Source: an uncultured Thermoplasmata archaeon (GTDB lineage: Archaea; Thermoplasmatota; Thermoplasmata; Lutacidiplasmatales; UBA184). From it: a stretch of 64,000 nucleotides of DNA. Both the position numbers and the translations under genes were made by a program. The notes beneath the pieces were generated by a model. That model did no database searches and was not told the origin of the DNA. It saw nothing but the letters and a program-made list of their open reading frames with translations. Positions 929 to 55,998 of this stretch are shown piece by piece. The stretch spans positions 51,410 to 115,409 of the forward strand of contig CAVYTM010000003.1 of the NCBI GenBank assembly GCA_963771555.1, written 5' to 3'. Numbering within the stretch: the stretch's first letter is position 1; every line of letters starts with the position of its first letter.

Positions 929-1474
929 CCACCCCTCCCTCGGCGGCGGCCGACGGTTCCCCCCGCGTCCGGTCGCGATTTCAGTCGTTTCAGAGCCATC
1001 GCCAATTCGTCGGCGGCGGCCGCTCGCACCGAGCGCGTCCCCGACCGTGCGTCGGGCTGACGGCCCAGGAAGTCGTCGAGCAGCTCCAGCTGACGATGCA
1101 GCCGGCGAAGCAGGTGGTCTCCGGGGTCGGAAGCCCCGGCGATCTCGGCCCAGAGCAACGAGAGGTCCGGGGCGCCGGGGCCGGGTCCGGCCATCCGAGC
1201 CCGGATCCGCCGCAGGACCCGTCCGCCCGTGGGGAGTGATCGAATACACCCTACGGACCCCATCCTTTCGTGTCCGAGCCACTCCCCGACGGACCAGCGA
1301 TTGGAGGGCGGGATAGACCGCTCCGGCGCCCGGCCGCCAGGCCCCCTCCGTTCGCTCCGCGATACGGTCGGCGAGCGCGTATCCGTAGACGGTTCCCTCG
1401 CGCTCCATCGTGGCCAGGGCGTAAAGCCCCAGCACTCGGCCGGGCATCGGTCGCTTGGGGGGAGCGGTGGGCAT
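925..1474 (-). CDS. PadR-family transcriptional regulator (apparent frameshift ~1225)
   Basis: From ATG 1474: ...VYGYALADRIAERTEGAWRPGAGAVYPALQSL...RRVYSITP (PadR wHTH motif), continuing in the frame of the 925..2229 ORF tail; overlaps the ABC gene start. Confidence 0.8.
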
Positions 1475-1629
1475 AGTGTCGGTTTCTGAATCGATTTCGA
1501 TATAAATCGTTCTCGCCCCCTCGGCCCCCGGGAACGAGCGGACGGGGTCGAGACCTCCGGGAAACGAGCGATTCCGCCGCCGGTGTCTCCCGGCAGGGTT
1601 CGGGGCGCAGGTACGCGACCCATCAAGCT

Positions 1630-2031
1630 ATGGTACGGTTTCCCGATGGACGACGTGTGTCCGAGCCCGCGCCCGCCCTCCGACCGTTGACCCGAGCCGA
1701 GCAGCGGGTGATCCTCCACAAGGGCACCGAGCCACCCTTCTCGGGGGAGTACGAACGCACGACCGAACCCGGGACGTACGAATGCAAGCAATGCGGGGCA
1801 CCCCTCTATCGGTCGGACGACAAGTTCGACGCTCGTTGCGGCTGGCCGGCGTTTGACCAGGAGATTCCGGGAGCCGTCCGTCGACTCCCCGACGCGGACG
1901 GCCAGCGCGTAGAGATCCAATGTGCTCGCTGCGGGGGCCATTTGGGCCACGTCTTCGAGGGGGAGCGATTGACGCCTCGGAACACGCGGCATTGCGTGAA
2001 CTCGATCTCCCTCCGATTTCAGCCGAAGTGA
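1630..2031 (+). CDS. msrB: Peptide methionine-R-sulfoxide reductase
   Basis: [36 protein letters not shown] motifs; true start may be a few codons downstream. Confidence 0.95.
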
Positions 2032-2287
2032 GACGGGTTTTCCCACTATTCGAAATTGCGGCGGGTCGTGGGGAGTTTTCATCGCCCTCTCGAATCGCCG
2101 CAGCCCGGAACTGAGACTTGCCGTATCGGCCCCGAGGTAGTGGGTCGTTTGGTCCGGAGACTCGTGTCGTACTGGAGCGCGGGCACCAAGAGCTCGCAGG
2201 CGAAAAGGGACTCCCGCCGACCACCTCAAGGGTCCGTCAACCGAACATTACCTCAGGTCTAAACCCCGAAGGCTCGCTACGCTTCCG

Positions 2288-3886
2288 ATGATTCCTCGCC
2301 AGAGCGGTTCGAAGAGCCTCGCCGCAAGCAGCCAGCTGATCCTGGTGGCCGTCGTGTCGCTGTTGGTGCTCACCCCGTTAGGAGCGGCCGCGGCGACTTC
2401 CCGGGCCCCTCTCGCGACGGTGCTCTCGGACGATTTCACGCAGGACACATCTCTGAACTCCGCCCTTTGGCAGGTGAACGGGTCCGTCGGTGTGGCGTTC
2501 GCGATAGACAACTGCCCCGCGTGCGCCAACATCACTCTCCAACCTAGCTTTTCCAGTACAACGGGCATGGAGATCGCTCAGGCTGATGCGATCTCGGTGG
2601 TGGGAACGATCCAAAGCGTTTCGTCGTTCGCTCCGCCGTTCACCGTGACCGCCGTCGTCACGGCGACCGTCGCGAACGGGCACCAATTCGTGTTCGGCAT
2701 CACCTCTGCGAACACCGGCTCCGGAGTCCAGATCACCGGCAACCTCAATCCCCGTGATTGCAGCAACGAGACCAATTGCGGGAACCAGGCTACCTGCGGC
2801 AATCCCGCCAATCCTTCGGTTGGGCCGAACCAATGCTTCTACGGCGTCTATGCCCGGGCTGCGACCGGCGGCAAGGCCTGGCCGAGGGTGACCCCGTTCC
2901 TGTACCCATCGCCCAGCTTGAACGTGGTCTATACACTCGAGATCGCGGTCGATAGCTCGGGAAACGCGCAGTACAGCATCAGCGCCGGTAGTCAGGTTCT
3001 GGGACAGGCCAGCGATCAGGTTGGAACCGGGCCATTCTACATCATCATCGGTCAGTCGGAGGGAGTGCCGGTCCTTGGACCCGGACCGAACGTGGCGTAC
3101 TGGACGTCCGTTAGTCTGACCCCGACCGCGCCGAGCGGCGGTAGTTCTCCTTCCGGAGCTTCCAATTCCAGCTTCTCTTCACTTGAGTGGCTTCTCATCG
3201 CCGCGGTCGTAGCCGTAGCTCTGATCCTCCTCGCCGTCCTCCGGAACCGCCGGGGACGTGACCTGACCGTCACCGTACTGGACTCCGGTACGCTCTCGCC
3301 CGTCCCGGGAGCCGACGTTTCGGCCGACGGTCCGAAGATCTTCTCCGGCAGCACGGGAACGAACGGAAGGGTCGCCTTTGGCGGCGTGAAAGCCGGCGAT
3401 TACGCGGTTAAAGTCGGTGCCCCCGGATATGCCTCACCTCCCCCCGTAACGATTCCCGTGAAGGGGGCGGCGGTGTACACCGTGAGACTGAACTCGATCA
3501 CCCCGCGTGCCCCCGTAGCAGTGGTCTTTCCGACCCTTGTCGCGGGACCGACCCGCCCATTGGAGGAGCCTCCTCGGGGCCCGGTCCCGACCCTCCCGCC
3601 GACACCCGCCCCGGCGGTTGCACCGTCGGCGCCCCCACCTCCTCCTGCGGCCCCCCTGGCCCGCGGAGAGGAGGAGGGCTTTGGCGGAGCGAGGATCCGT
3701 GAAATCATCCAAACGTTCCGAGCGAAGGGGGCGCTGAGTCCGCAAACGGCCCTTTCAGCCCAAGAGCTCGGCTTGTCTCGAATCTTCGTGCGGATCATGA
3801 AACGGCGGAGAGGAAAGACCATGGTCTTCGTCGAGGTCGACGGGAAGTACTACCTCGACGAGCAGGCGCTGCGGGCGATGAGGTAG
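2288..3886 (+). CDS. Secreted single-pass membrane protein: extracellular beta-rich domain, TM, carboxypeptidase-regulatory-like domain, Pro-rich linker, C-terminal wHTH-like domain
   Basis: Signal peptide; TM WLLIAAVVAVALILLAVL followed by RNRRGR; LTVTVLD..PVPGADVS..TGTNGRVAF..GDYAVKV.APGY pattern; basic C-terminus. Confidence 0.7.
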   Translation: MIPRQSGSKSLAASSQLILVAVVSLLVLTPLGAAAATSRAPLATVLSDDFTQDTSLNSALWQVNGSVGVAFAIDNCPACANITLQPSFSSTTGMEIAQADAISVVGTIQSVSSFAPPFTVTAVVTATVANGHQFVFGITSANTGSGVQITGNLNPRDCSNETNCGNQATCGNPANPSVGPNQCFYGVYARAATGGKAWPRVTPFLYPSPSLNVVYTLEIAVDSSGNAQYSISAGSQVLGQASDQVGTGPFYIIIGQSEGVPVLGPGPNVAYWTSVSLTPTAPSGGSSPSGASNSSFSSLEWLLIAAVVAVALILLAVLRNRRGRDLTVTVLDSGTLSPVPGADVSADGPKIFSGSTGTNGRVAFGGVKAGDYAVKVGAPGYASPPPVTIPVKGAAVYTVRLNSITPRAPVAVVFPTLVAGPTRPLEEPPRGPVPTLPPTPAPAVAPSAPPPPPAAPLARGEEEGFGGARIREIIQTFRAKGALSPQTALSAQELGLSRIFVRIMKRRRGKTMVFVEVDGKYYLDEQALRAMR

Positions 3887-48932: not shown

Positions 48933-51002
48933 CTACGTCCGGTTGAAGGTTGCCGTCGCGGTCTGTCCGCTCGCATAGGCGGTAGCAATGAAAGTATACA
49001 CCGCCGCTCCGGAGGCCTTTGTGAGGGTCAGAGTACACGTGAAGGCGCCGGCGGCGGTCGGTGTAATCGTCGACCCCGAAACACTGCTACCACTGCTGCA
49101 GGTGAACGACAGCGTTCCGGACACCAACAGGGTCCCATTGAGCGTTATCGTCTCCTTCGAGCCGGAGGCGAACCCAGCCCCGGTCAGTGTGACCGCTACG
49201 GTGCTTGTGTGAACCCCGAATTTCGGACTAACCGTCAGGCTCCATGGGGTGACCGTGTAAGTGGTCGTGTAGGTCTGTCCCGCCGCGTCGGTGGCCATGA
49301 TCGTGTCCGCGCCCGTCGGCGCACTGAAGGGAACCGGGAAGGTGCAGCCACTGAACGAACCGGCGGCCACAACCGTAACGGTCGAACCGGACGATGATCC
49401 GGTCGTACAGGCGCCCGCAAATACGACGGGTTGCCCCGCGAAAGTGATTGTGACGGTCGTCAAGGTCACCCATCCGGCACCGCCGAGCGTGACTGTGGAG
49501 TTCATCAAACCTGAGGTCGGCGACGGGGTGACGACCCAATCCGTCACGGCGTAGGCCGCGGAGGCGTTCTGACCCGTGGCGGTGTCGCTCGCGATCACCG
49601 TACTAGCGGTGAACGGGGTTCCTGTAGCTACCGTGAACGTGCAGACGAACCCTCCCCCTGCCGTCGTCGTGACCGCCGCCGCGTTCCACGAAATGTCCAA
49701 GGAACACCCCGTGATCGTCGCGGCCACTCCCGAGAGGCTTAGCGACACCGGTGAGTCGCCAGCAAACGCCGCCCCGGTCGCCGTGACAGAGCTTCCGATG
49801 ATTCCACCACCGCTCGATAGACTAAGAGTCGAGGTTGTGAATCGCATGACGCCGCTCGCGGTCGGCGAGACTCCGGTGACGGTCGCATTCGCGTACACTG
49901 CGAAGGAGGTGGGTGAAGCGGGGATCAACCATTGAGCCTTGCTGACGACCGTCACGCTGGACGTGCCGCTAATTGTCAAGCCTGACGGGGCATACCCCTT
50001 GAATCCGCTGCTCGAGGAAAAGGTGACGTTGAGCGCGGCGTTCTGCAGGACTCCCGTGTAGGTCACGACTGCCTGCACCGACTCCGTAGTCCCCGCGTTC
50101 GGAGGGGCCGGTACCAGGATCACGCCGACGGAGAGAGGTCCGTTCGAAGTGGCCGTGGAAGAGATCGTGATGACGATAGCCCCGGTGGCCGTTTGGCCGT
50201 ACGCGTTCGAGGCGTTGACGAACCCGTAGAACGTTCCGTTCTTGGTGGTGTTCCCCGCCTTGACGACGAACCCCCACACGCCCTGGCCGTTCTGGGTCAT
50301 CCTGACCACGGAAGGGCTGGCCGCCCCGGGCACCGAAGCCAAGTTGAGATACACTGAGTTCGACGTATAGCTGCCCGCCAGGGTCGCATTCACCGTGAAG
50401 CCCTGACCAATGGTAGGGTTGGCGGGGGAGATCCAGGTGGAAACGACGGTCGGGGGAACCGCCACGGCGCTTCCGGGAAGAATGATGCTGAAGAGGAGCT
50501 GGGAGGCCGAAACGACGTACACCGTGATGTTACCGAGGGCGCTCGGCTGTTGCGTGGTCGCGAACGTGAGGGACCACACCTGACCCAGGTTCCACGTTCC
50601 TGCTCCCCCGATGCCCGAGGAGACGGTGTACGGGTCGAGGGGCGAGGTGAACTCGGGCGCGTTCGGCTGAGTGGCGGACTTGAGATAGATCTGACCGATT
50701 CCGGGGACCGACGGTCCGGCGAGGTGAACGATTTGAATGGTCGTGATGTTGAGTCCGCTACTCGTGTAGATCAGGGACGCCTGGAACTGGTTGTTGTTCT
50801 GGGAGGGAGGTGGCGGGAACTGGGTGACAAAGGCGAAAATGGAGGCGAAGAGGGTAACCGTTAGCGCGAGGAGCAGTATGGTCGCAACGACGTCCGAAAC
50901 ACCGCGTCGGCCCGCTCGATGGCGCCGGCGGACCCTCCAGCGAGATTTCGCTGGACGACGGTCGGAACCTACGGTTAGCCCTCGCCTTCTCGACACACTC
51001 AT
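48933..51002 (-). CDS. Large type IV pilin-like protein (class III signal peptide) with Ig-like repeats
   Basis: RRG|VSDVVATILLLALTVTLF; IVHLAG..WNLGQ pilin-domain pattern; three C-terminal repeats (S...G..VT.TG.GF type). Confidence 0.82.
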   Translation of the reverse strand: MSVSRRRGLTVGSDRRPAKSRWRVRRRHRAGRRGVSDVVATILLLALTVTLFASIFAFVTQFPPPPSQNNNQFQASLIYTSSGLNITTIQIVHLAGPSVPGIGQIYLKSATQPNAPEFTSPLDPYTVSSGIGGAGTWNLGQVWSLTFATTQQPSALGNITVYVVSASQLLFSIILPGSAVAVPPTVVSTWISPANPTIGQGFTVNATLAGSYTSNSVYLNLASVPGAASPSVVRMTQNGQGVWGFVVKAGNTTKNGTFYGFVNASNAYGQTATGAIVITISSTATSNGPLSVGVILVPAPPNAGTTESVQAVVTYTGVLQNAALNVTFSSSSGFKGYAPSGLTISGTSSVTVVSKAQWLIPASPTSFAVYANATVTGVSPTASGVMRFTTSTLSLSSGGGIIGSSVTATGAAFAGDSPVSLSLSGVAATITGCSLDISWNAAAVTTTAGGGFVCTFTVATGTPFTASTVIASDTATGQNASAAYAVTDWVVTPSPTSGLMNSTVTLGGAGWVTLTTVTITFAGQPVVFAGACTTGSSSGSTVTVVAAGSFSGCTFPVPFSAPTGADTIMATDAAGQTYTTTYTVTPWSLTVSPKFGVHTSTVAVTLTGAGFASGSKETITLNGTLLVSGTLSFTCSSGSSVSGSTITPTAAGAFTCTLTLTKASGAAVYTFIATAYASGQTATATFNRT

Positions 51003-51180
51003 GCGCACCGGTATAGAGGCCGAGGGGCGGTATTTAGACGTTCCCGTGACGACCCTTCGTCCCGAGGCAAGAAACAGATGGGCACGTTGACGGCGCTCTC
51101 TTCATCTGGCGTTCGGGCGACCCGAGCGCGACGTACGGGCGGGTTCCCGAAAAGGCGCCGTTCAGGGTCGAATCCGCTGG

Positions 51181-51234: not shown

Positions 51235-51858
51235 CTACGGGAGACTGATCGAGGTCGTGCCCGTGAAGCCACCGTTTCCGAGCGTGACGAAGGTGAGCCC
51301 CGTACCAGCGGGGGAGGCCGCGGTCACACCCAGGTCGACTACGATGGTGTAGAGGTTGGTCAGAGGGGACGACGAGCTACATGCGGTGGTCTGAGTCGGC
51401 CCGCAGAAGTTGCCGAACGTCGCGAACGACGCGGTCATCGCCATCCCGCTTGCGGCCGCCACAGTCGCCGAAGCGGCTGCGCCGCCAGCGATACCCAAAA
51501 CGGTAAAGCTACCGGCCACCGTGGCTACTGCAATCGCGCCCGCAGAGGTCTTCACTTCGAAGAGGACGTTACCGAAGTTCACGGTCGAGGATTCGACCGT
51601 CACGGTGTAGCAGTAGTGGTTTAGGGCGCATCCGGTTACGGCAGCGGCCGGGCCCGACAAGAGAGGGGCTCCCACCGTGAACGCCGTTCCAATCGGCTTC
51701 GATCCTACACCGCCACCCGTCAAGCCCGAAATGAGCACGTACAGCACAGCGGCCAACACGACCGTGATCGCGACCAGCAAGATCGTCGCGATGATCGGCG
51801 ACACTCCGCGCTTCCGTGCCTTTCTCCAGCTTCGTTCGTTCTTTCCAAAGACGTTCAT
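51235..51858 (-). CDS. Archaeal type IV pilin (class III signal peptide)
   Basis: RKRG|VSPIIATILLVAITVVLAAVLYVLISG; two Cys pairs; GGAGG RBS upstream. Confidence 0.9.
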   Translation of the reverse strand: MNVFGKNERSWRKARKRGVSPIIATILLVAITVVLAAVLYVLISGLTGGGVGSKPIGTAFTVGAPLLSGPAAAVTGCALNHYCYTVTVESSTVNFGNVLFEVKTSAGAIAVATVAGSFTVLGIAGGAAASATVAAASGMAMTASFATFGNFCGPTQTTACSSSSPLTNLYTIVVDLGVTAASPAGTGLTFVTLGNGGFTGTTSISLP

Positions 51859-51977: not shown

Positions 51978-52309
51978 ACGTAATACACACTAATGCGCAT
52001 AATGCCACACTGACGCACGTCAGAGAGTGACACTGCGGGACGAGCCGCAACACCTCTGCAACCGGTCGGGAGGTGCCCGGGATCCGCTCCCGGGGGGTCG
52101 CTGAACTTCCGGTCGGAGGGTCGCCAAACCCGTGAAGAGCTTCTTGGGGCGTGTTATACTGAGCCGACCGAGCCTCGACGGCTGGTTCGACTGATTTCCT
52201 TGCGTGTTCGACACGTCAGGAAACACCACTTTCCCCAACTCCGCAGGGCTCTCTTCGGCCGGACGTGCTTGCGTTTAAGTACAGGGAGTTTCAATCCTTG
52301 TGCTCGACT

Positions 52310-52810
52310 GTGTTCGACAACGCTTCCAAACGAGCATCCGGGGCCTCTCCGGATCCGGCGGCCCGTGTGGAAGAGCCCGAGGATGCGCGCATCGCCCTAC
52401 GGTGCAACCGCAAGGAGCTCCAGCTGGTCGACTCGTTCGTGGCGAACGGCGAGTTCCCGACCCGCTCGGAGCTCATGCGAGCGGCGCTGCACGCGTTCCT
52501 CCGCTCCCGAGCGATGTCGGCCGCGCCGACACCCACGATCGACGCCGAGGGCTTCATCGAGGTCCCCGTGCGTCTGCGGCCCGAGGAGTACGCCACTCTC
52601 GAGACCTACGCCCACCACGTCGCGAACCGAGGCTCGGTGAAGGACATCCTTGCCGAGATCATTCGGCGCGGCGAGCTGGAGATGAAGGTCGGCGAGCTCG
52701 TTCAACGGGCTCGCGCAACGGTGCGCGAGGCGGTGGAGACTCGGACCCAGGTCGGAGCGCTCGGAGAGAGCGCGAAGGACCTAGAGCGAAAGGGGGTCGT
52801 CGGTCGGTAG
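52310..52810 (+). CDS. CdrS-like ribbon-helix-helix protein (two RHH-like modules)
   Basis: RIALRCNRKELQLVDSFVANGEFPTRSELMRAAL resembles CdrS/CopG RHH; second module EVPVRLRPEEYATL..SVKDILAEII; TATA TTTAAGTA at 52274 favours GTG 52310. Confidence 0.75.
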   Translation: MFDNASKRASGASPDPAARVEEPEDARIALRCNRKELQLVDSFVANGEFPTRSELMRAALHAFLRSRAMSAAPTPTIDAEGFIEVPVRLRPEEYATLETYAHHVANRGSVKDILAEIIRRGELEMKVGELVQRARATVREAVETRTQVGALGESAKDLERKGVVGR

Positions 52811-52850
52811 GACGGCGAGGTTCGTTGGAGCACTCAGTCAAGGGGGGGTT

Positions 52851-53771
52851 GTGGGGAGCTACGAGGCCGGGCAGGATGGGGACGACCGAAACTTAACGCC
52901 GGGGAGCGGAGACCCGATCGGCGGAGGGTGGGACACTTCGCTTCGCCTCGGTCAGGACGTTCGTTTCGTCCTGGCCGCGGTCGGTGGCGGAGCCATCCGC
53001 GTGGCACGGGAAATCGCTCGCCGCCACATCCGTCACTTGGAGACGGTCGCGATCAATTGCGACCCGAAAGTTCAAGGATTTGATGAATTCGACCGCCGCG
53101 TCTATCTTGGTCCGGACTCCGGGATCGAGACCGACACCGGCGGCTCGCCGTTCGTCGGAGGAGTGCTCGCGCGCGCCGCCGAACCGGCCCTTCAGCGGAT
53201 CTTCCGCGGAGTGACCTTTGTCATCGTCGTGGGCAGTCTCGGCGGGGGTGCCGGCAGCGGCGCCTTCCCCTACGTGCTCGAGGTTGCCTCCCGGAACTCC
53301 GAGGTCGTCAGCGCCTTCGTGATCAAGCCGTTCCGGTGCGAGGGAGACCGTCGAGCCTTGGCGGACCGCGCCATCGGGCGACTCCACTTCGTCGACTCCT
53401 TCGTCGAGAAGCGCGAGCGCGGCGTCGCCACCCTCCAGACACTCGATAACGAGAGCCTGGTGCGGACGTGCGGCACGCTCGCCTTCTCGCGAATCGCCGA
53501 GCACTGGGCCTCCGTGATCGAGGAGCACATCGAGCGCTCGTTCCTCGCTCCGACCGAGGCGATCCTCAGCGCGGCGCAGCTCGCTCCCAGCGCACTCTCC
53601 GAAACGACCGGGAACGGGGAAGTCGAGACCCCGGAGTTCGGGGTCGTTCCCCCGGCCCGAGTCCCCGAGCCCCCTCTACCGGCGCCCATGCCAGCGCTTC
53701 AAGCGGAGCTGCGGGAAGTCGAGCTCACGTTCGAAGTCGACGGCCAAGCCCGACCTCCTCCGGCCCACTAA
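52851..53771 (+). CDS. Divergent FtsZ/tubulin-family protein, GTP-binding domain only
   Basis: VGGGA, AINCD, TGGSPFVG, LGGGAGSGA, KPFRCEG, LDNE motifs in FtsZ order; no T7 loop or C-terminal domain; true start possibly ~52928. Confidence 0.85.
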   Translation: MGSYEAGQDGDDRNLTPGSGDPIGGGWDTSLRLGQDVRFVLAAVGGGAIRVAREIARRHIRHLETVAINCDPKVQGFDEFDRRVYLGPDSGIETDTGGSPFVGGVLARAAEPALQRIFRGVTFVIVVGSLGGGAGSGAFPYVLEVASRNSEVVSAFVIKPFRCEGDRRALADRAIGRLHFVDSFVEKRERGVATLQTLDNESLVRTCGTLAFSRIAEHWASVIEEHIERSFLAPTEAILSAAQLAPSALSETTGNGEVETPEFGVVPPARVPEPPLPAPMPALQAELREVELTFEVDGQARPPPAH

Positions 53772-53859: not shown

Positions 53860-54027
53860 ATGGACGGACGACTCCTCACGGTCCTCTTGCTCCTGGTCCT
53901 TCCCGCGGCGCTGATCGGGGTAACCTGCTTTGAGTTCCATTCGAACCCCGTCGCGATCCTCGGCCTAATCGGCGTGATGATCGTCGGGACGTTCTATCTC
54001 GTCTCGTACACCGAGTCGTTCGCGTGA
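53860..54027 (+). CDS. Small two-TM membrane protein (55 aa)
   Basis: Not in track: MDGRLLTVLLLLVLPAALIGVTCFEFHSNPVAILGLIGVMIVGTFYLVSYTESFA; TATA-like TTTATGA ~53829; fills the gap. Confidence 0.7.
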   Translation: MDGRLLTVLLLLVLPAALIGVTCFEFHSNPVAILGLIGVMIVGTFYLVSYTESFA

Positions 54028-54054: not shown

Positions 54055-54861
54055 CTATCCGTACATTCCGGGAGTGGGCGTAACCGCCTCGGGGGGTGTC
54101 GAAGGTTGGTTCCCCGGATGGGACTTCATCACCGCACGCAGGGCCTTCTCGATCTGCTCCGCCTGGGCCCGCAGCGGACCCGTATCGATCCGGAGTTCGG
54201 GTAGCACCCGGTCGAGGCTTTCGATCAACGCTGCTCCGGCGCGATGGTCCGGGAGGCCTTCGGCCACCCGGGCGCTCACGAGAAGGACCGCGACGGGTAT
54301 CGACCGTCCGATCCCCTGGACGAGCAATGCCCCCGAAACCCCGCCGATCACCCCGTCCTCGAGAAGACGAGCTTTCGCCGGCTCGAACGCCTTGACGATG
54401 GCGGGTTCTTTGCGCGAGAAGGCGACCCACACCTGTTCCGGCGATTGTTCCTCGGCGACCGCGCTCTCCTCTCCCTCGGGCGCATCGTCCCCCGGAGGAT
54501 GCGGCACGACGCCCTCGAGGCCGATGATCATACGGGCCTTGTGGCGCTCCGCGGCTTCGAGGATCGTCCGGGCGATTGCGTTGGCCTGGGACGGGCTCGG
54601 GGGGAACTCGGAGAGGACGAGTCCGAGGTCGGACCGGCCGTACACACGGATGATCGGATTCACCTCGCCTCCCTGAACGACGGCGATCGGCGAAAGGTCG
54701 GGAGATTCGAACCGACCGATCCGCGGCACGCTCAGCGCGCGGATCATGTAGTGACCGGCGACGGTCGTGGCAAGTCCGGCGCTCGGGAACGCCGAGACCA
54801 CGACCGAGCCCTCTCCGAAGTCCTTCGAGGCGGGCGCTTCCTCTCGCCACGTGAATTCCAT
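54055..54861 (-). CDS. Proteasome assembly chaperone (PAC2 family)
   Basis: AFPSAGLATTVAGHY, PIIRVY, GVIGGVSGALL, LPDHRAGA, LRAQAEQIE, C-terminal MYG (HbYX-type). Confidence 0.88.
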   Translation of the reverse strand: MEFTWREEAPASKDFGEGSVVVSAFPSAGLATTVAGHYMIRALSVPRIGRFESPDLSPIAVVQGGEVNPIIRVYGRSDLGLVLSEFPPSPSQANAIARTILEAAERHKARMIIGLEGVVPHPPGDDAPEGEESAVAEEQSPEQVWVAFSRKEPAIVKAFEPAKARLLEDGVIGGVSGALLVQGIGRSIPVAVLLVSARVAEGLPDHRAGAALIESLDRVLPELRIDTGPLRAQAEQIEKALRAVMKSHPGNQPSTPPEAVTPTPGMYG

Positions 54862-54960
54862 GGTGGGCTCTCCGTCGGGGTCGAGGCATCGACCCCTATA
54901 GAGGCTGGCGGCCAATTCCGCGCGGTAACCCCAAGTACTCGGTTCCGCTCGGACGCCGCC

Positions 54961-55998
54961 GTGGGGCTCCCGCTCAAAGACCTCGTGGTCGCGCAGGAGC
55001 TTCCGTGGGATGCGTTGGCGGGCCGGACGCTTGCCGTCGATGGCTACAATGCCGTCTATCAGTTCCTCGCGACTCTGCGCCAACGCGATGGCCAGCTCTT
55101 CTGCGACCCCGAAGGTCGCGTGACGAGCCACCTGATGGGGGTCTTCTACCGAACGACCTCCCTCCTCCGGGAGGGAGTTCTTCCCGTCTGGGTCTTCGAC
55201 GGAAAACCTCCCGAGCGGAAGGCCGGAACGATCCGCCAGCGGATCGTCGCGAAGGAGAAGGCCGAGGAACAATGGCAGGAGGCGCTCGCGTCCGGCGACC
55301 TCGAAACCGCCCGGAAGAAGGCCGCCCAAACGTCCCGGCTGACCCGGCCGATGGTCGAAGAGCTGCGGCAACTGCTCACCGCGCTCGGTGTTCCTTCGGT
55401 ACAGGCTCCGAGCGAGGGCGAGGCCCAGGCGGCGATCATGGCCGCGAAAGGGTCGGTTTGGGCCGCCGCGTCGGAGGATTACGATAGCCTTCTGTTCGGG
55501 GCTCCCCGATTGATCCGGGGCCTCGCGGCCCGGGGCCGCGGTGGCGTGAGTCCGGGAGCGCAACTGGTCGACCGCGCTGAGGTCCTCGCGTCCCTCGGCA
55601 TCAGCGAAGAGGAGCTGATCGTCCTCGGAATCGTCATCGGCACGGACTTCAACGACGGGGTGCGGGGATACGGCCCCAAGAAATCGCTCAAGCTGGTGCA
55701 GGAACATCTCGGCTTCCGAGCCACCGTGGAAAAGGTGGGATTGGCCTTCGACGAGGCCGAGGAGGTCGCGGAGATCTTCCGACACCCCCAATTCGTCGAC
55801 GTCCCCGCCCCGTCCTTCGGGCCGGTCGACGAGACCGCGGTCCGCACGATCCTCGTGGACGCGCACGGATTCTCGGAAGAGCGCGTCCGAAGTGCCGTCG
55901 CCCGAGCTCGCCAGAGGCCCCGCGTGAGCTCGAGCCCCCAGGAGGCTCGGGGTCACCAGACGCTGATCGAAACCTTCGGAGGAACTCCCGATCCATGA
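54961..55998 (+). CDS. fen: Flap endonuclease 1
   Basis: AVDGYNAVYQFL, TSHL.G, VFDGKPP, APSEGEAQA, SEDYDSLLFGAP, GTDFN, PIP-like Q.LIETF. Confidence 0.96.
   Translation: MGLPLKDLVVAQELPWDALAGRTLAVDGYNAVYQFLATLRQRDGQLFCDPEGRVTSHLMGVFYRTTSLLREGVLPVWVFDGKPPERKAGTIRQRIVAKEKAEEQWQEALASGDLETARKKAAQTSRLTRPMVEELRQLLTALGVPSVQAPSEGEAQAAIMAAKGSVWAAASEDYDSLLFGAPRLIRGLAARGRGGVSPGAQLVDRAEVLASLGISEEELIVLGIVIGTDFNDGVRGYGPKKSLKLVQEHLGFRATVEKVGLAFDEAEEVAEIFRHPQFVDVPAPSFGPVDETAVRTILVDAHGFSEERVRSAVARARQRPRVSSSPQEARGHQTLIETFGGTPDP

Follow-up and report, generated by a model that had tools for sequence, protein, structure and literature searches.

A gene encoding a shortened FtsZ paralogue (short FtsZ) is located in the 64,000-nucleotide stretch of Thermoplasmata DNA analysed here, which is called the window throughout. 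Its reading frame starts at a GTG, and no earlier start codon follows the preceding stop codon. Comparison with related loci showed that short ftsZ lies in the centre of a conserved three-gene cluster, preceded by a gene for a double ribbon-helix-helix (RHH) protein and followed by an ORF for a putative 55-aa membrane protein. The features of the locus are compiled in Table 1.

Table 1. Features of the short ftsZ locus; positions are those of the window, residue numbers those of short FtsZ
Feature	Position	Strand	Residues	Remarks
TATA-box-like element TTTAAGTA	52274..52281	+		about 30 nt before the likely RHH start; putative promoter
Double RHH protein	52310..52810	+		166 aa from GTG 52310; profile matches, orthologues
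G-run GGGGGGG, Shine-Dalgarno-like	52842..52848	+		3–9 nt before GTG; putative function
Short FtsZ paralogue	52851..53771	+		306 aa plus stop codon
Variable N-terminal extension	52851..52961	+	1–37	conserved YEA motif near start
Nucleotide-binding domain and core helix H7	52962..53546	+	38–232	alignment A1, AlphaFold2, Foldseek
Loops of the nucleotide-binding domain				T1 GGG 45–47; NCD 69–71; TGGSP 96–100; PFRCEG 160–165; RR 167–168; DN 199–200
T4 signature GGGAGSG	53241..53261	+	131–137	Ala for the usual Thr
Extension of H7 across the positions of T7 loop and H8	53547..53591	+	233–247	predicted by AlphaFold2 as single helix 212–247
Glu E236	53556..53558	+	236	motif xPxE(A/S/G)
Pro/Glu-rich disordered linker	53592..53705	+	248–285	length and sequence variable; columns poorly conserved; pLDDT <50
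Conserved C-terminal peptide EVELTFEV	53715..53738	+	289–296	alignment A1
55-aa ORF	53860..54027	+		two hydrophobic stretches, likely small membrane protein; topology by eye

The start of the RHH gene was moved by means of orthologues from the mechanical ORF start at 52265 to 52310. Ahead of VFDNA, the reading frame is interrupted by stop codons in three orthologous loci; therefore, the conserved DNA in this region is regarded as non-coding. The 181-aa RHH ORF reached 18.3 bits with the Pfam family RHH_1, below the cut-off of 20.5, and its best NCBIfam match was the CdrS model NF058555 with 28.4 bits at a cut-off of 100; the 166-aa form gave no Pfam match at E ≤ 0.001. The tail of the protein, DLERKGVVGR, is conserved. 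With an HMM of the RHH family, such a gene was detected ahead of all short and all divergent two-domain FtsZs that were examined, and short ftsZ itself is preceded by it in 64 of 70 related loci. The gap from the RHH stop codon to short ftsZ is 40 nt here and 33–41 nt in most orthologues. On the other side of short ftsZ, the initial annotation had placed the next gene about 300 nt away, but the 55-aa ORF starts already 88 nt downstream. This ORF was found by tblastn to be conserved in 79 of 88 related loci, on the same strand and mostly 70–100 nt past the ftsZ stop codon; it gave no match in Pfam.

Evidence for RNA came from assembled metatranscriptome contigs, which may contain DNA and indicate presence only. 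For the RHH gene, such contigs were obtained from RNA libraries of three studies on peat or soil, and one contig of 502 nt (31 differences) spans the RHH stop codon and an ftsZ-like start. Parts of short ftsZ are covered at low depth or lack such contigs, which by their nature show neither absence nor level.

The gene product had been described initially as an FtsZ homologue reduced to its GTP-binding domain, and Pfam, the AlphaFold2 model and Foldseek agree in this respect. The Pfam family Tubulin (PF00091) matched residues 64–175 with 44.4 bits (cut-off 33), and FtsZ_C (PF12327) and Tubulin_C gave no match at E ≤ 1, which is the outcome predicted for this search. The ftsZ model TIGR00065 scored 67.6 bits at a cut-off of 295.2 and covered only positions 24–167 of its 353. 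Among 52 sequence matches in the PDB at E ≤ 1, 49 were FtsZ, all confined to residues 33–190 of the query. AlphaFold2 yielded a confident model for residues 29–247, comprising the N-domain and one long helix (212–247), with pLDDT values mostly above 90 for residues 40–240; residues 1–28 and almost all of residues 248–306 lie in segments with a pLDDT below 50. The top Foldseek matches were all FtsZ, with E-values from 3e-12, and their alignments extended over 167–231 columns only, whereas the FtsZ chains are about 300 residues long.

The N-domain motifs listed in the initial annotation were all present and in the order given there. In an alignment of the short FtsZ family (A1), the columns G45, G46, G131, G132, G135, P160, F161, E164, R167, R168, D199 and N200 are invariant; likewise, T1 GGG, PFxxEG and DN are invariant in the family. 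We presume that R167/R168 may correspond to Arg143 of Staphylococcus aureus FtsZ, which is mutated in PDB entry 7ojb, one of the Foldseek matches. Within the N-terminal extension, E5 is found in at least 90% of the sequences. The Pro/Glu-rich linker and the short terminal peptide following it could also be recognized in A1, the former with low pLDDT. In the end peptide, E295 is invariant and E291 occurs in at least 90% of the sequences; ELREVELTFEVDG is a stretch near the C-terminus of the protein.

Thus, short FtsZ consists of the nucleotide-binding domain of the FtsZ family, H7, a Pro-rich linker and an acidic-hydrophobic end peptide, and it lacks the C-terminal β-sheet subdomain (S7–S10, H9–H10) which forms the "bottom" polymerisation face in FtsZ. 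The PF00091 match, the nucleotide loops and the N-domain fold with H7 place the protein in the tubulin/FtsZ superfamily; by its TIGR00065 score and by the lack of FtsZ_C and of an NxDFAD T7 loop it lies outside FtsZ proper. Assignment to CetZ was rejected: no chain named CetZ was among the 52 PDB matches, and a CetZ cluster ranked only 25th (score 0.85) in an Atlas feature search. The same feature search returned a viral cluster of 229 aa labelled "Tubulin/FtsZ GTPase domain (fragment)" with a score of 0.90. A split gene with the C-domain encoded elsewhere was also rejected. A six-frame search of the 83.6%-complete assembly for FtsZ_C detected three two-domain ftsZ genes only, the fourth match having an E-value of 0.217; a separate C-domain gene was not found in this assembly, nor was any FtsZ_C signal in the six frames of the short ftsZ locus.

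Conservation of the gene was analysed in related genomes. Within the genus, 18 of 24 other genomes contain a full-length orthologue (17 of 23 when the unpublished genome G018 is left out), and the six genomes lacking it are 62–89% complete. Relatives were identified in 70 species-level Thermoplasmata genomes of the UBA184/Lutacidiplasma type. They include 66 complete frames with a median length of 307 aa, 62 of which are 294–331 aa long. Of 68 relatives whose 3′ end is complete, 64 carry the end motif. A search of 1.84 billion representatives gave 19 clusters at the 50% level at E ≤ 1e-30, none of them longer than 321 aa. For the GTPase part (residues 38–232), dN/dS was 0.017–0.15 in nine of ten pairs; higher values were obtained for the N-terminal extension (0.1–0.9); the linker gave 0.13–0.84 and the last 21 codons 0.15–0.38 in seven of ten pairs. 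Short forms in general, the end motif of which varies between subfamilies, were found in about one half of the 121 genomes sampled from the class.

These data bear on the possibility that the locus harbors a decaying pseudogene, or that an assembly error or frameshift masks a full-length ftsZ. Indel artefacts had been noted initially elsewhere in the window, and four relatives (L012, L088, L092 and L109) have aberrant tails which look frameshifted. However, frames of nearly uniform length recur in independent assemblies together with the end motif, dN/dS is far below 1, FtsZ_C is absent from every frame at the locus, and in the large representative set no relative above 321 aa reached E ≤ 1e-30. 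As far as comparative data can do so, they refute a pseudogene or artefact, the probability of which we consider negligible; the initial annotation had arrived at the same view. Judged from sequence comparison, short ftsZ is a real, conserved gene under purifying selection, the truncation of which is not specific to a single strain.

The T7 synergy loop NxDFAD of FtsZ provides catalytic Asp residues to the next subunit. In short FtsZ, the corresponding position reads SFLAPTEAILSA and NxDFAD is absent; residues 231–244 (53541–53582) are FLAPTEAILSAAQL. According to the AlphaFold2 model this place is part of a helix, with a pLDDT of 88 for residues 231–240. In correction of the initial annotation, this place is not featureless, since a near-invariant residue, E236, is located there: it is found in 23 of 23 aligned family members (A1), and inspection of printed segments by eye showed its loss in only one intact relative (L070) among 70 loci. 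A folded C-domain with an acidic T7 equivalent had been named beforehand as one of the findings that would refute the initial interpretation; the folded domain is absent, and the acid is present at the place of T7 and H8. Conservation of E236 suggests that some function of the bottom face remains.

Alignment of the E236 region to the canonical NxDFAD is uncertain with both MAFFT and hhalign. In other subfamilies of short forms, most sequences have an acid which MAFFT aligns with the final Asp of DFAD. Homology of E236 to this acid is unproven, because the hhalign comparison of short FtsZ with the other short forms (probability 99.6, residues 30–233) ends at the end of H7, MAFFT puts E236 several columns ahead of the DFAD column in question, and by residue count the offset from a shared S-F motif to the acid differs by 1–2 residues between short subfamilies. 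Furthermore, the Asp which canonical sequences carry in H7 in the MAFFT alignment, and which we take to be the residue reading the guanine base in FtsZ, is not kept in the short FtsZ family; hence, the nucleotide specificity of short FtsZ is uncertain.

The three two-domain ftsZ genes of this genome, the number of which the initial annotation had proposed to determine, comprise two canonical copies and one copy linked to an RHH gene. The canonical proteins scored 417.6 and 387.2 bits with TIGR00065, both contain FtsZ_C, and they end in DLDII and VIDLV; SepF is encoded as well. The canonical copy on contig 1 is somewhat nearer to Methanocaldococcus jannaschii FtsZ1 (380 versus 345 bits), the labels FtsZ1 and FtsZ2 being provisional. 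The RHH-linked two-domain FtsZ, also on contig 1, has 343 aa and an FtsZ_C match of 40.6 bits. Its T7 loop reads NVDLAS, without the final Asp of the motif, and it may be a poor activator of GTPase activity; basal two-domain members linked to RHH genes have an intact T7 loop, N(L/I)DFAD.

Phylogenetic trees were calculated with IQ-TREE and, for a set with added sequences, with FastTree. All RHH-linked FtsZs formed one clade apart from the canonical FtsZs (UFBoot 100; SH-like support 1.0). This clade spans the class, comprises two-domain as well as N-domain-only members, and lies outside both canonical groups; its attachment point is weakly supported in a tree lacking a named FtsZ2 reference. 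The short FtsZ family is found on a long branch (1.2–1.4 substitutions per site), inner nodes of the clade are weak, and the placement of the family within it is tentative. On these grounds, short FtsZ is assigned as an N-domain-only member of the RHH-linked Thermoplasmata FtsZ clade, a grouping defined here. Three genomes (G033, G038 and G039) each contain a two-domain and a short RHH-linked form.

Five genomes of another family of the class, Methanomethylophilus-type by their database names and 98–99% complete, contain only RHH-linked forms of FtsZ, namely exactly one two-domain and one short form each. Neither a canonical FtsZ nor an FtsZ_C match was detected in these five genomes, the best-scoring FtsZ homologue of which is the short form. 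For the long form, a compact FtsZ fold with both domains was obtained, with TMq values of 0.70–0.75 over about 310–330 alignment columns for the best-scoring fold matches; compact forms of this kind are assigned to the wrong class if frame length is the sole criterion. ESCRT-III (Snf7) was matched in none of the five genomes by a search which was only weakly positive in its Sulfolobus control.

Canonical archaeal FtsZ1 and FtsZ2 share with short FtsZ the N-domain fold, the loops T1, T4, PFxxEG and DN, H7, and a disordered linker with a terminal peptide. They differ in possessing the C-subdomain and NxDFAD, in the T4 sequence (GGGAGSG in short FtsZ), in clade, in TIGR00065 score and in the end peptide, which lacks a GID-type motif in short FtsZ. 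The archaeal FtsZ peptide that binds SepF centres on a nearly invariant GID according to PMC8178401; EVELTFEV does not match this motif. A precedent for an RHH gene combined with ftsZ is the cdrS-ftsZ2 operon of Halobacteria and other Euryarchaeota, in which, as PMC7439475 describes, the gene for a small RHH protein is likewise located directly upstream of an FtsZ paralogue on the same strand and probably co-transcribed with it. However, the RHH protein found here contains two repeats in about 166 aa, as compared to one in about 60 aa in the CdrS described there, its score is far below the CdrS cut-off, and its downstream gene does not encode a full-length FtsZ2.

Truncated FtsZ paralogues of Hyphomicrobiales, e.g., Agrobacterium FtsZ1 and FtsZ3, are also extra shortened copies kept over long periods, and PMC13732431 proposes them as tuners of division and reports that over-production of FtsZ1 blocks division. 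They are bacterial, of independent origin and without a link to an RHH gene. Agrobacterium FtsZ1 has kept its whole globular core and lost linker and tail, the opposite of short FtsZ. FtsZl1 (Makarova and Koonin 2010, PMC2875224) resembles short FtsZ in a divergent FtsZ-like N-domain without a recognizable FtsZ C-domain, and that paper doubts that it forms filaments; there, FtsZl1 is described as lacking T6–H7, and most of the proteins found in the search of that study bear a coiled coil and an α-helical C-terminal domain. Short FtsZ retains T6 (DN) and H7, and its tail is disordered and Pro-rich; hence, we do not assign it to FtsZl1 as described there. MciZ, SulA and MipZ would have the same outcome as proposed for short FtsZ, i.e., the blocking of one filament end or interface, but their folds are unrelated to FtsZ, whereas short FtsZ would cap as a mimic of a subunit. 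MipZ is said to be a plus-end capper of FtsZ. FtsZ chains from FtsZ-MciZ and FtsZ-SulA structures were among the Foldseek matches.

None of the well-studied members of the FtsZ/tubulin family is known to do without either domain: the T7 loop and C-domain of a subunit complete the GTPase site of its neighbour. The relative movement of the two FtsZ domains underlies cooperative assembly and treadmilling. Short FtsZ would bind GTP, since all nucleotide loops are kept, but the switch in conformation between N-domain and C-domain would be impossible for it. It would present a full "top" (GTP) face and, with E236, at most a vestigial "bottom", and would thus be expected to co-assemble with a two-domain FtsZ, its GTP face contacting the T7 face of that protein. 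We tentatively prefer this reading of short FtsZ as a GTP-loaded partner co-assembling with a two-domain paralogue, although we would put it below an even chance. The RHH-linked sister paralogue would be the first candidate, and a canonical FtsZ may serve as well. The co-assembled protein could end, limit or anchor the filament, its linker and end peptide may tie it to a further partner, for which the 55-aa membrane protein and SepF are candidates, and its dose may be set by the RHH protein, as is that of ftsZ2 by CdrS in haloarchaea. A near-invariant E236 speaks against co-assembly insofar as it could mean a working bottom and self-assembly.

The initial annotation had proposed that a protein with one face could cap, nucleate or sequester canonical FtsZ, or be a non-polymerising GTP-binding adaptor. 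Absence of the C-domain, on which this proposal was based, was verified, and FtsZ mutated in its bottom face reportedly caps growing filament ends at substoichiometric amounts. That short FtsZ caps, nucleates or sequesters canonical FtsZ1 and FtsZ2 of the same cell by its GTP face only would also fit the two canonical FtsZs and SepF of this genome and the invariance of the nucleotide loops and the Arg pair R167/R168 after PFxxEG. However, short FtsZ is not a recent offshoot of canonical FtsZ, and E236 suggests leftover bottom-face function. In addition, N-domain-only forms occur in the five methanogen genomes without canonical FtsZ, so that this architecture cannot in general serve to cap canonical FtsZ. 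We consider this explanation distinctly unlikely; capping of canonical FtsZ is probably too narrow and at best part of the story, whereas capping of, or co-assembly with, a two-domain paralogue is plausible from the sequences. Short FtsZ may also assemble by itself: in such a minimal FtsZ, the extended H7 with E236 would stand in for the T7 loop and allow filaments or oligomers without a C-subdomain. The conservation of E236, the acid in the DFAD column of other short subfamilies, the predicted projection of the helix from the bottom of the domain, and the best score of the short form in the Methanomethylophilus-type genomes are consistent with this. On the other hand, the acids of the different short forms may not be homologous, most of the canonical bottom interface is gone, and the Methanomethylophilus-type genomes also retain a two-domain partner; self-assembly therefore appears rather improbable.

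Short FtsZ may also act without polymerising, as a GTP-dependent switch or adaptor in which the N-domain would serve as nucleotide sensor and the tail and exposed H7 would act on other partners; besides the RHH protein, the 55-aa membrane protein and SepF, these may include further ones. The conserved three-gene cluster, the conserved terminal peptides on both short FtsZ and the RHH protein, the H7 face predicted to be exposed by loss of the C-subdomain, and the absence of a canonical T7 loop are in favor of such a role. Its partner is only putative, however. Complex prediction for short FtsZ (A1) and the RHH protein (A2), run without controls, gave a score of 0.01 (mark 0.32), which speaks neither for nor against contact between the two. 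T4 GGG, PFxxEG, RR and DN are invariant; in our reading they shape the pocket in which hydrolysis in trans takes place, and a mere switch would have no evident need of it. The end motif differs among short-form subfamilies. We regard a switch or adaptor as unlikely. In partition systems, RHH-type adaptors are paired with cytomotive NTPases. By comparison with TubZ/TubR and ParM/ParR, the RHH protein could be a site-specific DNA adaptor and short FtsZ a motor recruited by its tail, and the strict pairing of the RHH protein with a tubulin-family NTPase bearing a flexible, conserved tail agrees with this. Such a DNA-segregation module is very improbable, as the nearest studied case, CdrS with ftsZ2, combines a transcription factor and a division protein according to PMC7439475, and many species carry the locus once, on the chromosome.

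The preferred co-assembly of short FtsZ with a two-domain paralogue could be part of a wider arrangement, to which we assign only a small chance: in Thermoplasmata there may be a third cytoskeletal system of the tubulin family which is coupled to RHH regulators, consists of a pair of paralogues with divided labour and replaces FtsZ1/FtsZ2 in Methanomethylophilus-type methanogens. In such a system the compact two-domain FtsZ would contribute the T7/C-domain face and the N-domain-only FtsZ the GTP face and a tether, in loose parallel to the α/β split of tubulin, and the pair would act as the division machinery of these methanogens instead of FtsZ1/FtsZ2.

The searchable full-text literature, to which subscription journals and supplements do not belong, contained no description of an archaeal FtsZ without the C-terminal subdomain or of its RHH link, and the main text of the Lutacidiplasmatales genome paper does not contain the terms "FtsZ", "tubulin" or "cell division". 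The widespread short FtsZ family thus seems not to have been described before. A natural family without the C-domain, the pocket of which is under strong selection, represents a ready-made test of the N-domain alone. Should short FtsZ cap or seed filaments, it would regulate an archaeal cytoskeleton by mimicking a subunit; we found no description of such a regulator in searchable papers. With this locus, the combination of an RHH regulator and an FtsZ paralogue seen in cdrS-ftsZ2 is also extended to a new clade, and the five genomes of gut-methanogen type with the RHH-linked pair only bear on the mode of division of such archaea. In public databases the proteins are labelled only as "cell division protein FtsZ", "tubulin/FtsZ family protein" or "hypothetical protein".

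The short FtsZ is a conserved FtsZ paralogue that has the N-domain only; it belongs to a clade whose genes have a ribbon-helix-helix (RHH) gene directly upstream (RHH-linked). Its domain match, signature and fold place it in the tubulin/FtsZ superfamily. The FtsZ motifs named in the initial annotation were all found, with the order and coordinates reported there, and a Pfam search returned the pattern it had predicted, a Tubulin match without FtsZ_C or Tubulin_C: the Tubulin/FtsZ GTPase domain reached 44.4 bits (cut-off 33) at residues 64-175, and FtsZ_C and Tubulin_C were absent at E ≤ 1. The FtsZ equivalog model TIGR00065 scored 67.6 bits (cut-off 295.2), with a match restricted to profile positions 24-167 of 353. 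PDB sequence matches at E ≤ 1 comprised 49 FtsZ chains out of 52, all aligned within residues 33-190; the remaining three were PhuZ-type chains (E 0.36-0.41).

An AlphaFold2 model built from 23 family members (mean pLDDT 76.9) was confident for residues 29-247, comprising the strands and helices of the N-domain followed by one long helix (212-247); pLDDT was below 50 for residues 1-28 and nearly all of 248-306. Structure prediction had been suggested as a check for a folded C-domain with an acidic T7 equivalent; no folded C-domain follows residue 247, but an acidic residue, E236, is present near the place of T7. Only FtsZ structures were found by Foldseek among the matches listed (E from 3e-12), with alignments over 167-231 columns of the ~300-residue FtsZ chains and a TMq of 0.47-0.56; in the predicted structure, the aligned part is the N-domain plus H7. 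The protein fails defining features of FtsZ proper, namely equivalog score, C-subdomain and T7 loop, and should not carry the plain label "cell division protein FtsZ".

The truncation proved to be conserved and the gene to be no pseudogene, as had been proposed, judging from orthologue frame lengths and a dN/dS below 1. Among 41 related genomes, orthologues with near-full query cover and 49-80% identity were found in 18 of the 24 other genomes of the genus (17 of 23 without the unpublished G018); the six genomes without an orthologue are 62-89% complete. The 19 genus frames, own included, measure 295-310 aa and share a common end point, with one exception, a 330-aa frame with an apparently frameshifted tail. 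When one genome per species was scanned, 70 loci were obtained, UBA184 and Candidatus Lutacidiplasma silvani among them; 68 are titled Thermoplasmata or Thermoplasmatales archaeon. The complete frames (n = 66) have a median of 307 aa, and 62 fall within 294-331 aa; outliers include a 156-aa fragment and a 347-aa frame; the tail of the latter is aberrant, as is that of the 314-aa frame of locus L088. In 5.8 billion clustered proteins, 438 matches were obtained at E ≤ 1e-5, the best 120 being 244-323 aa long; among 1.84 billion representatives, 19 matched at E ≤ 1e-30 with length unrestricted, the longest having 321 aa.

Whole-gene dN/dS (Nei-Gojobori, ten pairs, one also drawing on G018) was 0.056-0.485 and that of the GTPase part 0.017-0.15 in all pairs but one; many pairs have a dS close to saturation, which makes the values rough, yet their direction is clear. 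A six-frame search of the 1.83-Mb assembly (83.6% complete) located FtsZ_C in three two-domain ftsZ genes only, and therefore no separate C-domain gene was found. As far as comparative data and a search of an 83.6%-complete assembly can show, the related frames, dN/dS and the six-frame FtsZ_C search speak against a strain-specific deletion, a misassembly and a split gene; that the short FtsZ is an artefact has practically no probability left.

In an alignment of 23 sequences of the short FtsZ family (lowest identity to the query 34%), the invariant columns were G45, G46, E64, L114, L130, G131, G132, G135, P140, P160, F161, E164, R167, R168, L198, D199, N200, E236 and E295. All except E236 and E295 lie on or beside nucleotide-binding loops, which indicates that the pocket, including the Arg pair past PFxxEG, is kept by selection. 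E236 belongs to a motif xPxE(A/S/G), four residues beyond H7 proper on the predicted helix extension. E295 is part of the terminal peptide (D/E)(V/A)ELTFE(V/I), which is kept in 64 of 68 relatives having a complete 3' end; the linker between E236 and this peptide is rich in Pro, differs among relatives in both length and sequence, and evolves faster. The H7 column that is mostly Asp in the aligned canonical FtsZs, the residue contacting the guanine base in FtsZ, holds no conserved residue in the short FtsZ family, and base specificity is therefore uncertain.

The best NCBIfam match of the upstream RHH protein was the haloarchaeal regulator CdrS (28.4 bits, cut-off 100), and Pfam RHH_1 gave 18.3 bits, under the cut-off of 20.5. 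Two RHH repeats are seen in its orthologues, and its C-terminal tail DLERKGVVGR is almost invariant. Stop codons upstream of the conserved VFDNA in three orthologous loci suggest GTG 52310 as the real start; together with a TATA-like element ahead of it, this points to a probably nearly leaderless gene for a protein of 166 aa, where the mechanical ORF would give 181 aa. An HMM of the RHH family detected this gene upstream in 64 of the 70 short FtsZ loci; the upstream sequence is too short in four of the remaining six, and two gave no match. The RHH gene is covered by contigs from RNA libraries of three studies on peat or soil, and two of these contigs are nearly identical to the window; a 502-nt contig with 31 differences starts inside the RHH gene, crosses the RHH stop and reaches 22 nt into the short ftsZ, and low-depth pieces lie at 53283-53567 inside the latter, all of which, as assembled contigs that may include DNA, indicate presence only.

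Features of the short ftsZ locus and of RHH-linked loci used for comparison
Feature	Position	Strand	Remarks
Short FtsZ ORF	52851..53771	+	GTG, first start codon past the upstream stop; 306 residues
RHH gene	mechanical start 52265, likely start GTG 52310	+	directly upstream of the short FtsZ gene
TATA-like TTTAAGTA	52274-52281	+	~30 nt before GTG 52310
55-aa ORF, two hydrophobic stretches	53860-54027	+	right after the short ftsZ; kept in 79/88 related loci
Archaeal type IV pilin-like ORF	48933-51008	-	Pilin_N 35.8 bits
Archaeal type IV pilin-like ORF, smaller	51235-51858	-	Pilin_N 27.5 bits; upstream of RHH-short ftsZ
PAC2-family gene	within 54055-55998	-	residues 387-608 of a 633-aa frame
FEN-1/XPG nuclease gene	within 54055-55998	+	residues 255-468 of a 584-aa frame
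Divergent two-domain FtsZ	contig 1, ~271665-272696 (locus L003, 1009..2040)	-	second RHH-linked paralogue
Double-RHH gene, 135 aa	L003, 2055..2462		precedes the 343-aa two-domain FtsZ
Double-RHH gene, 112 aa	locus L024 (genome G029), row 1060..3338		first of three genes; another family, same order
RHH-linked FtsZ, full-length, 352 aa	L024, same row		second gene; T7 NIDFAD
Tubulin-like ORF, 281 aa, very divergent	L024, same row		third gene; degenerate T4 SMHGRTGIG

The source genome contains four tubulin-family genes. A count of full-length ftsZ genes, proposed in the initial annotation, gave two canonical copies (TIGR00065 418 and 387 bits, each with FtsZ_C) and one divergent two-domain copy of 343 aa (TIGR00065 191.7 bits, FtsZ_C 40.6 bits), in which T7 reads NVDLAS and the motif's last Asp is replaced. 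Six short-frame matches from six other families of the class, chosen by frame length and hence not an unbiased sample, were all FtsZ-like ORFs of 255-283 aa directly behind a double-RHH ORF of 120-143 aa. A Tubulin domain without FtsZ_C was likewise seen in five short proteins (242-303 aa) taken from the representative search. An RHH HMM match was present upstream of every short form examined and of every divergent two-domain form (341-361 aa; genomes G026, G029, G033, G038 and G039), and absent beside all 16 canonical ftsZ genes of that set.

The RHH-linked proteins formed a single clade separate from the two canonical groups (IQ-TREE, LG+G4, 185 N-domain columns, 42 sequences; UFBoot 100), which was recovered by FastTree with seven sequences added (SH-like support 1.0). 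Four two-domain members with an intact T7 N(L/I)DFAD are basal, and the short forms are nested inside; the short FtsZ family comes out as monophyletic (100 and 1.0) and sits on a long branch, whose exact position the trees do not fix. When 121 genomes of the class were searched with a profile built from the other short forms and the 150 listed of 455 rows were read by eye, at least about 59 showed a match extending beyond H7 in an open frame of ≤330 aa; frame length as sole criterion gave 68. This tally, the only one to count the unpublished G128, is a rough lower bound, and frame length by itself can mislead, as the compact two-domain gene of family f8 illustrates.

Another family of the class, f8, was represented by five genomes (G035, G091, G100, G109 and G145; loci L119-L125) that are 98-99% complete, three being single contigs. 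The Tubulin-domain search gave two matches per genome and no more, one in a frame of 238-270 aa and the other in a frame of 273-311 aa. FtsZ_C was matched in none of the five, and the source genome's canonical FtsZ as query recovered these two genes and no others; SepF was found in three. The short form (227-245 aa) is annotated in databases as "cell division protein FtsZ", under names including Candidatus Methanomethylophilus sp., Thermoplasmatales archaeon BRNA1 and Candidatus Methanoplasma sp.; it lies behind a double-RHH gene in the two closed genomes examined at the locus and on the G035 contig. In all five genomes a shorter RHH-like gene precedes the second gene (266-285 aa). The model of this second gene, from a shallow four-sequence alignment (pLDDT 75.4, pTM 0.81), gave best-scoring fold matches over ~310-330 alignment columns with a TMq of 0.70-0.75 and predicts a compact two-domain FtsZ. 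Searches and model together indicate that the only FtsZ-family members in these five genomes are an RHH-linked two-domain paralogue and an RHH-linked paralogue with the N-domain alone.

The data establish the architecture and its conservation, the gene cluster, the clade and the presence of a two-domain sister alongside; the mechanism is a reading of these in the light of general FtsZ structure. The FtsZ N-domain carries the nucleotide and makes the "top" face; T7 loop, H8 and C-subdomain form the "bottom" face completing the neighbour's active site, and cooperative assembly depends on a shift of the two domains relative to each other. An N-domain-only protein could accept a T7 loop and would have neither a normal bottom face nor a conformational switch; the short FtsZ might thus be a subunit-mimic ending or limiting a filament, or a tethered terminal subunit. 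The initial annotation had proposed that a protein with one polymerisation face could cap, nucleate or sequester canonical FtsZ or be a non-polymerising adaptor. This is borne out in part: the architecture fits capping by a subunit-mimic, but canonical FtsZ need not be the natural partner, since in f8 the N-domain-only form persists without it, always beside the two-domain RHH-linked sister. Since the same architecture survives there, specific capping of canonical FtsZ appears rather improbable. We tentatively favor, at clearly less than even confidence, co-assembly with a two-domain paralogue, the sister being the first candidate.

A non-polymerising GTP switch or adaptor is an unlikely reading, although one to be reckoned with. 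Self-assembly, to which we assign a low probability, or some other bottom-face function would be consistent with E236, nearly invariant where T7 and H8 would sit, and with the acidic residue that most sequences of the other short subfamilies have in the column of DFAD's last Asp (MAFFT); however, hhalign alignments of the short FtsZ family with other short forms stop at the end of H7, and homology of this acidic residue is therefore unproven. A partition-like module formed by the short FtsZ and the RHH protein seems quite improbable. The mechanism, including the favored co-assembly with the sister, is open to direct test.

Truncated bacterial FtsZ paralogues are shortened in the opposite way to the short FtsZ. 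They are of independent origin (PMC13732431). The closest studied arrangement is the cdrS-ftsZ2 operon (PMC7439475); in contrast to it, the RHH protein of the short FtsZ locus carries two repeats and scores far under the CdrS cut-off, and its FtsZ partner is not a full-length FtsZ2. RHH-short ftsZ loci may be listed in Table S1 of that paper. The FtsZl1 family is described as lacking T6-H7, and most proteins from the FtsZl1 search as having a coiled coil and an alpha-helical C-terminal domain (PMC2875224). The accessible part of an archaeal CetZ survey mentions "non-canonical" tubulin-family proteins and describes no truncation (PMC9856176). A search of main texts, mostly from journals outside subscription, returned no description of the short FtsZ family.

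The third-ranked look-alike of the short FtsZ in the ESM Atlas (0.90) was a family of 229 aa labelled "Tubulin/FtsZ GTPase domain (fragment)", 73% of whose members are viral (Uroviricota); phages or archaeal viruses may likewise have short tubulin-like proteins. Downstream of the short ftsZ, the product of the 55-aa ORF, which has no Pfam family, is a candidate membrane partner. At 54055-55998, two long mechanical ORFs overlap on opposite strands because of the high G+C content, and the real genes are only parts of them. The smaller pilin-like ORF was matched in 38 of 88 related loci.
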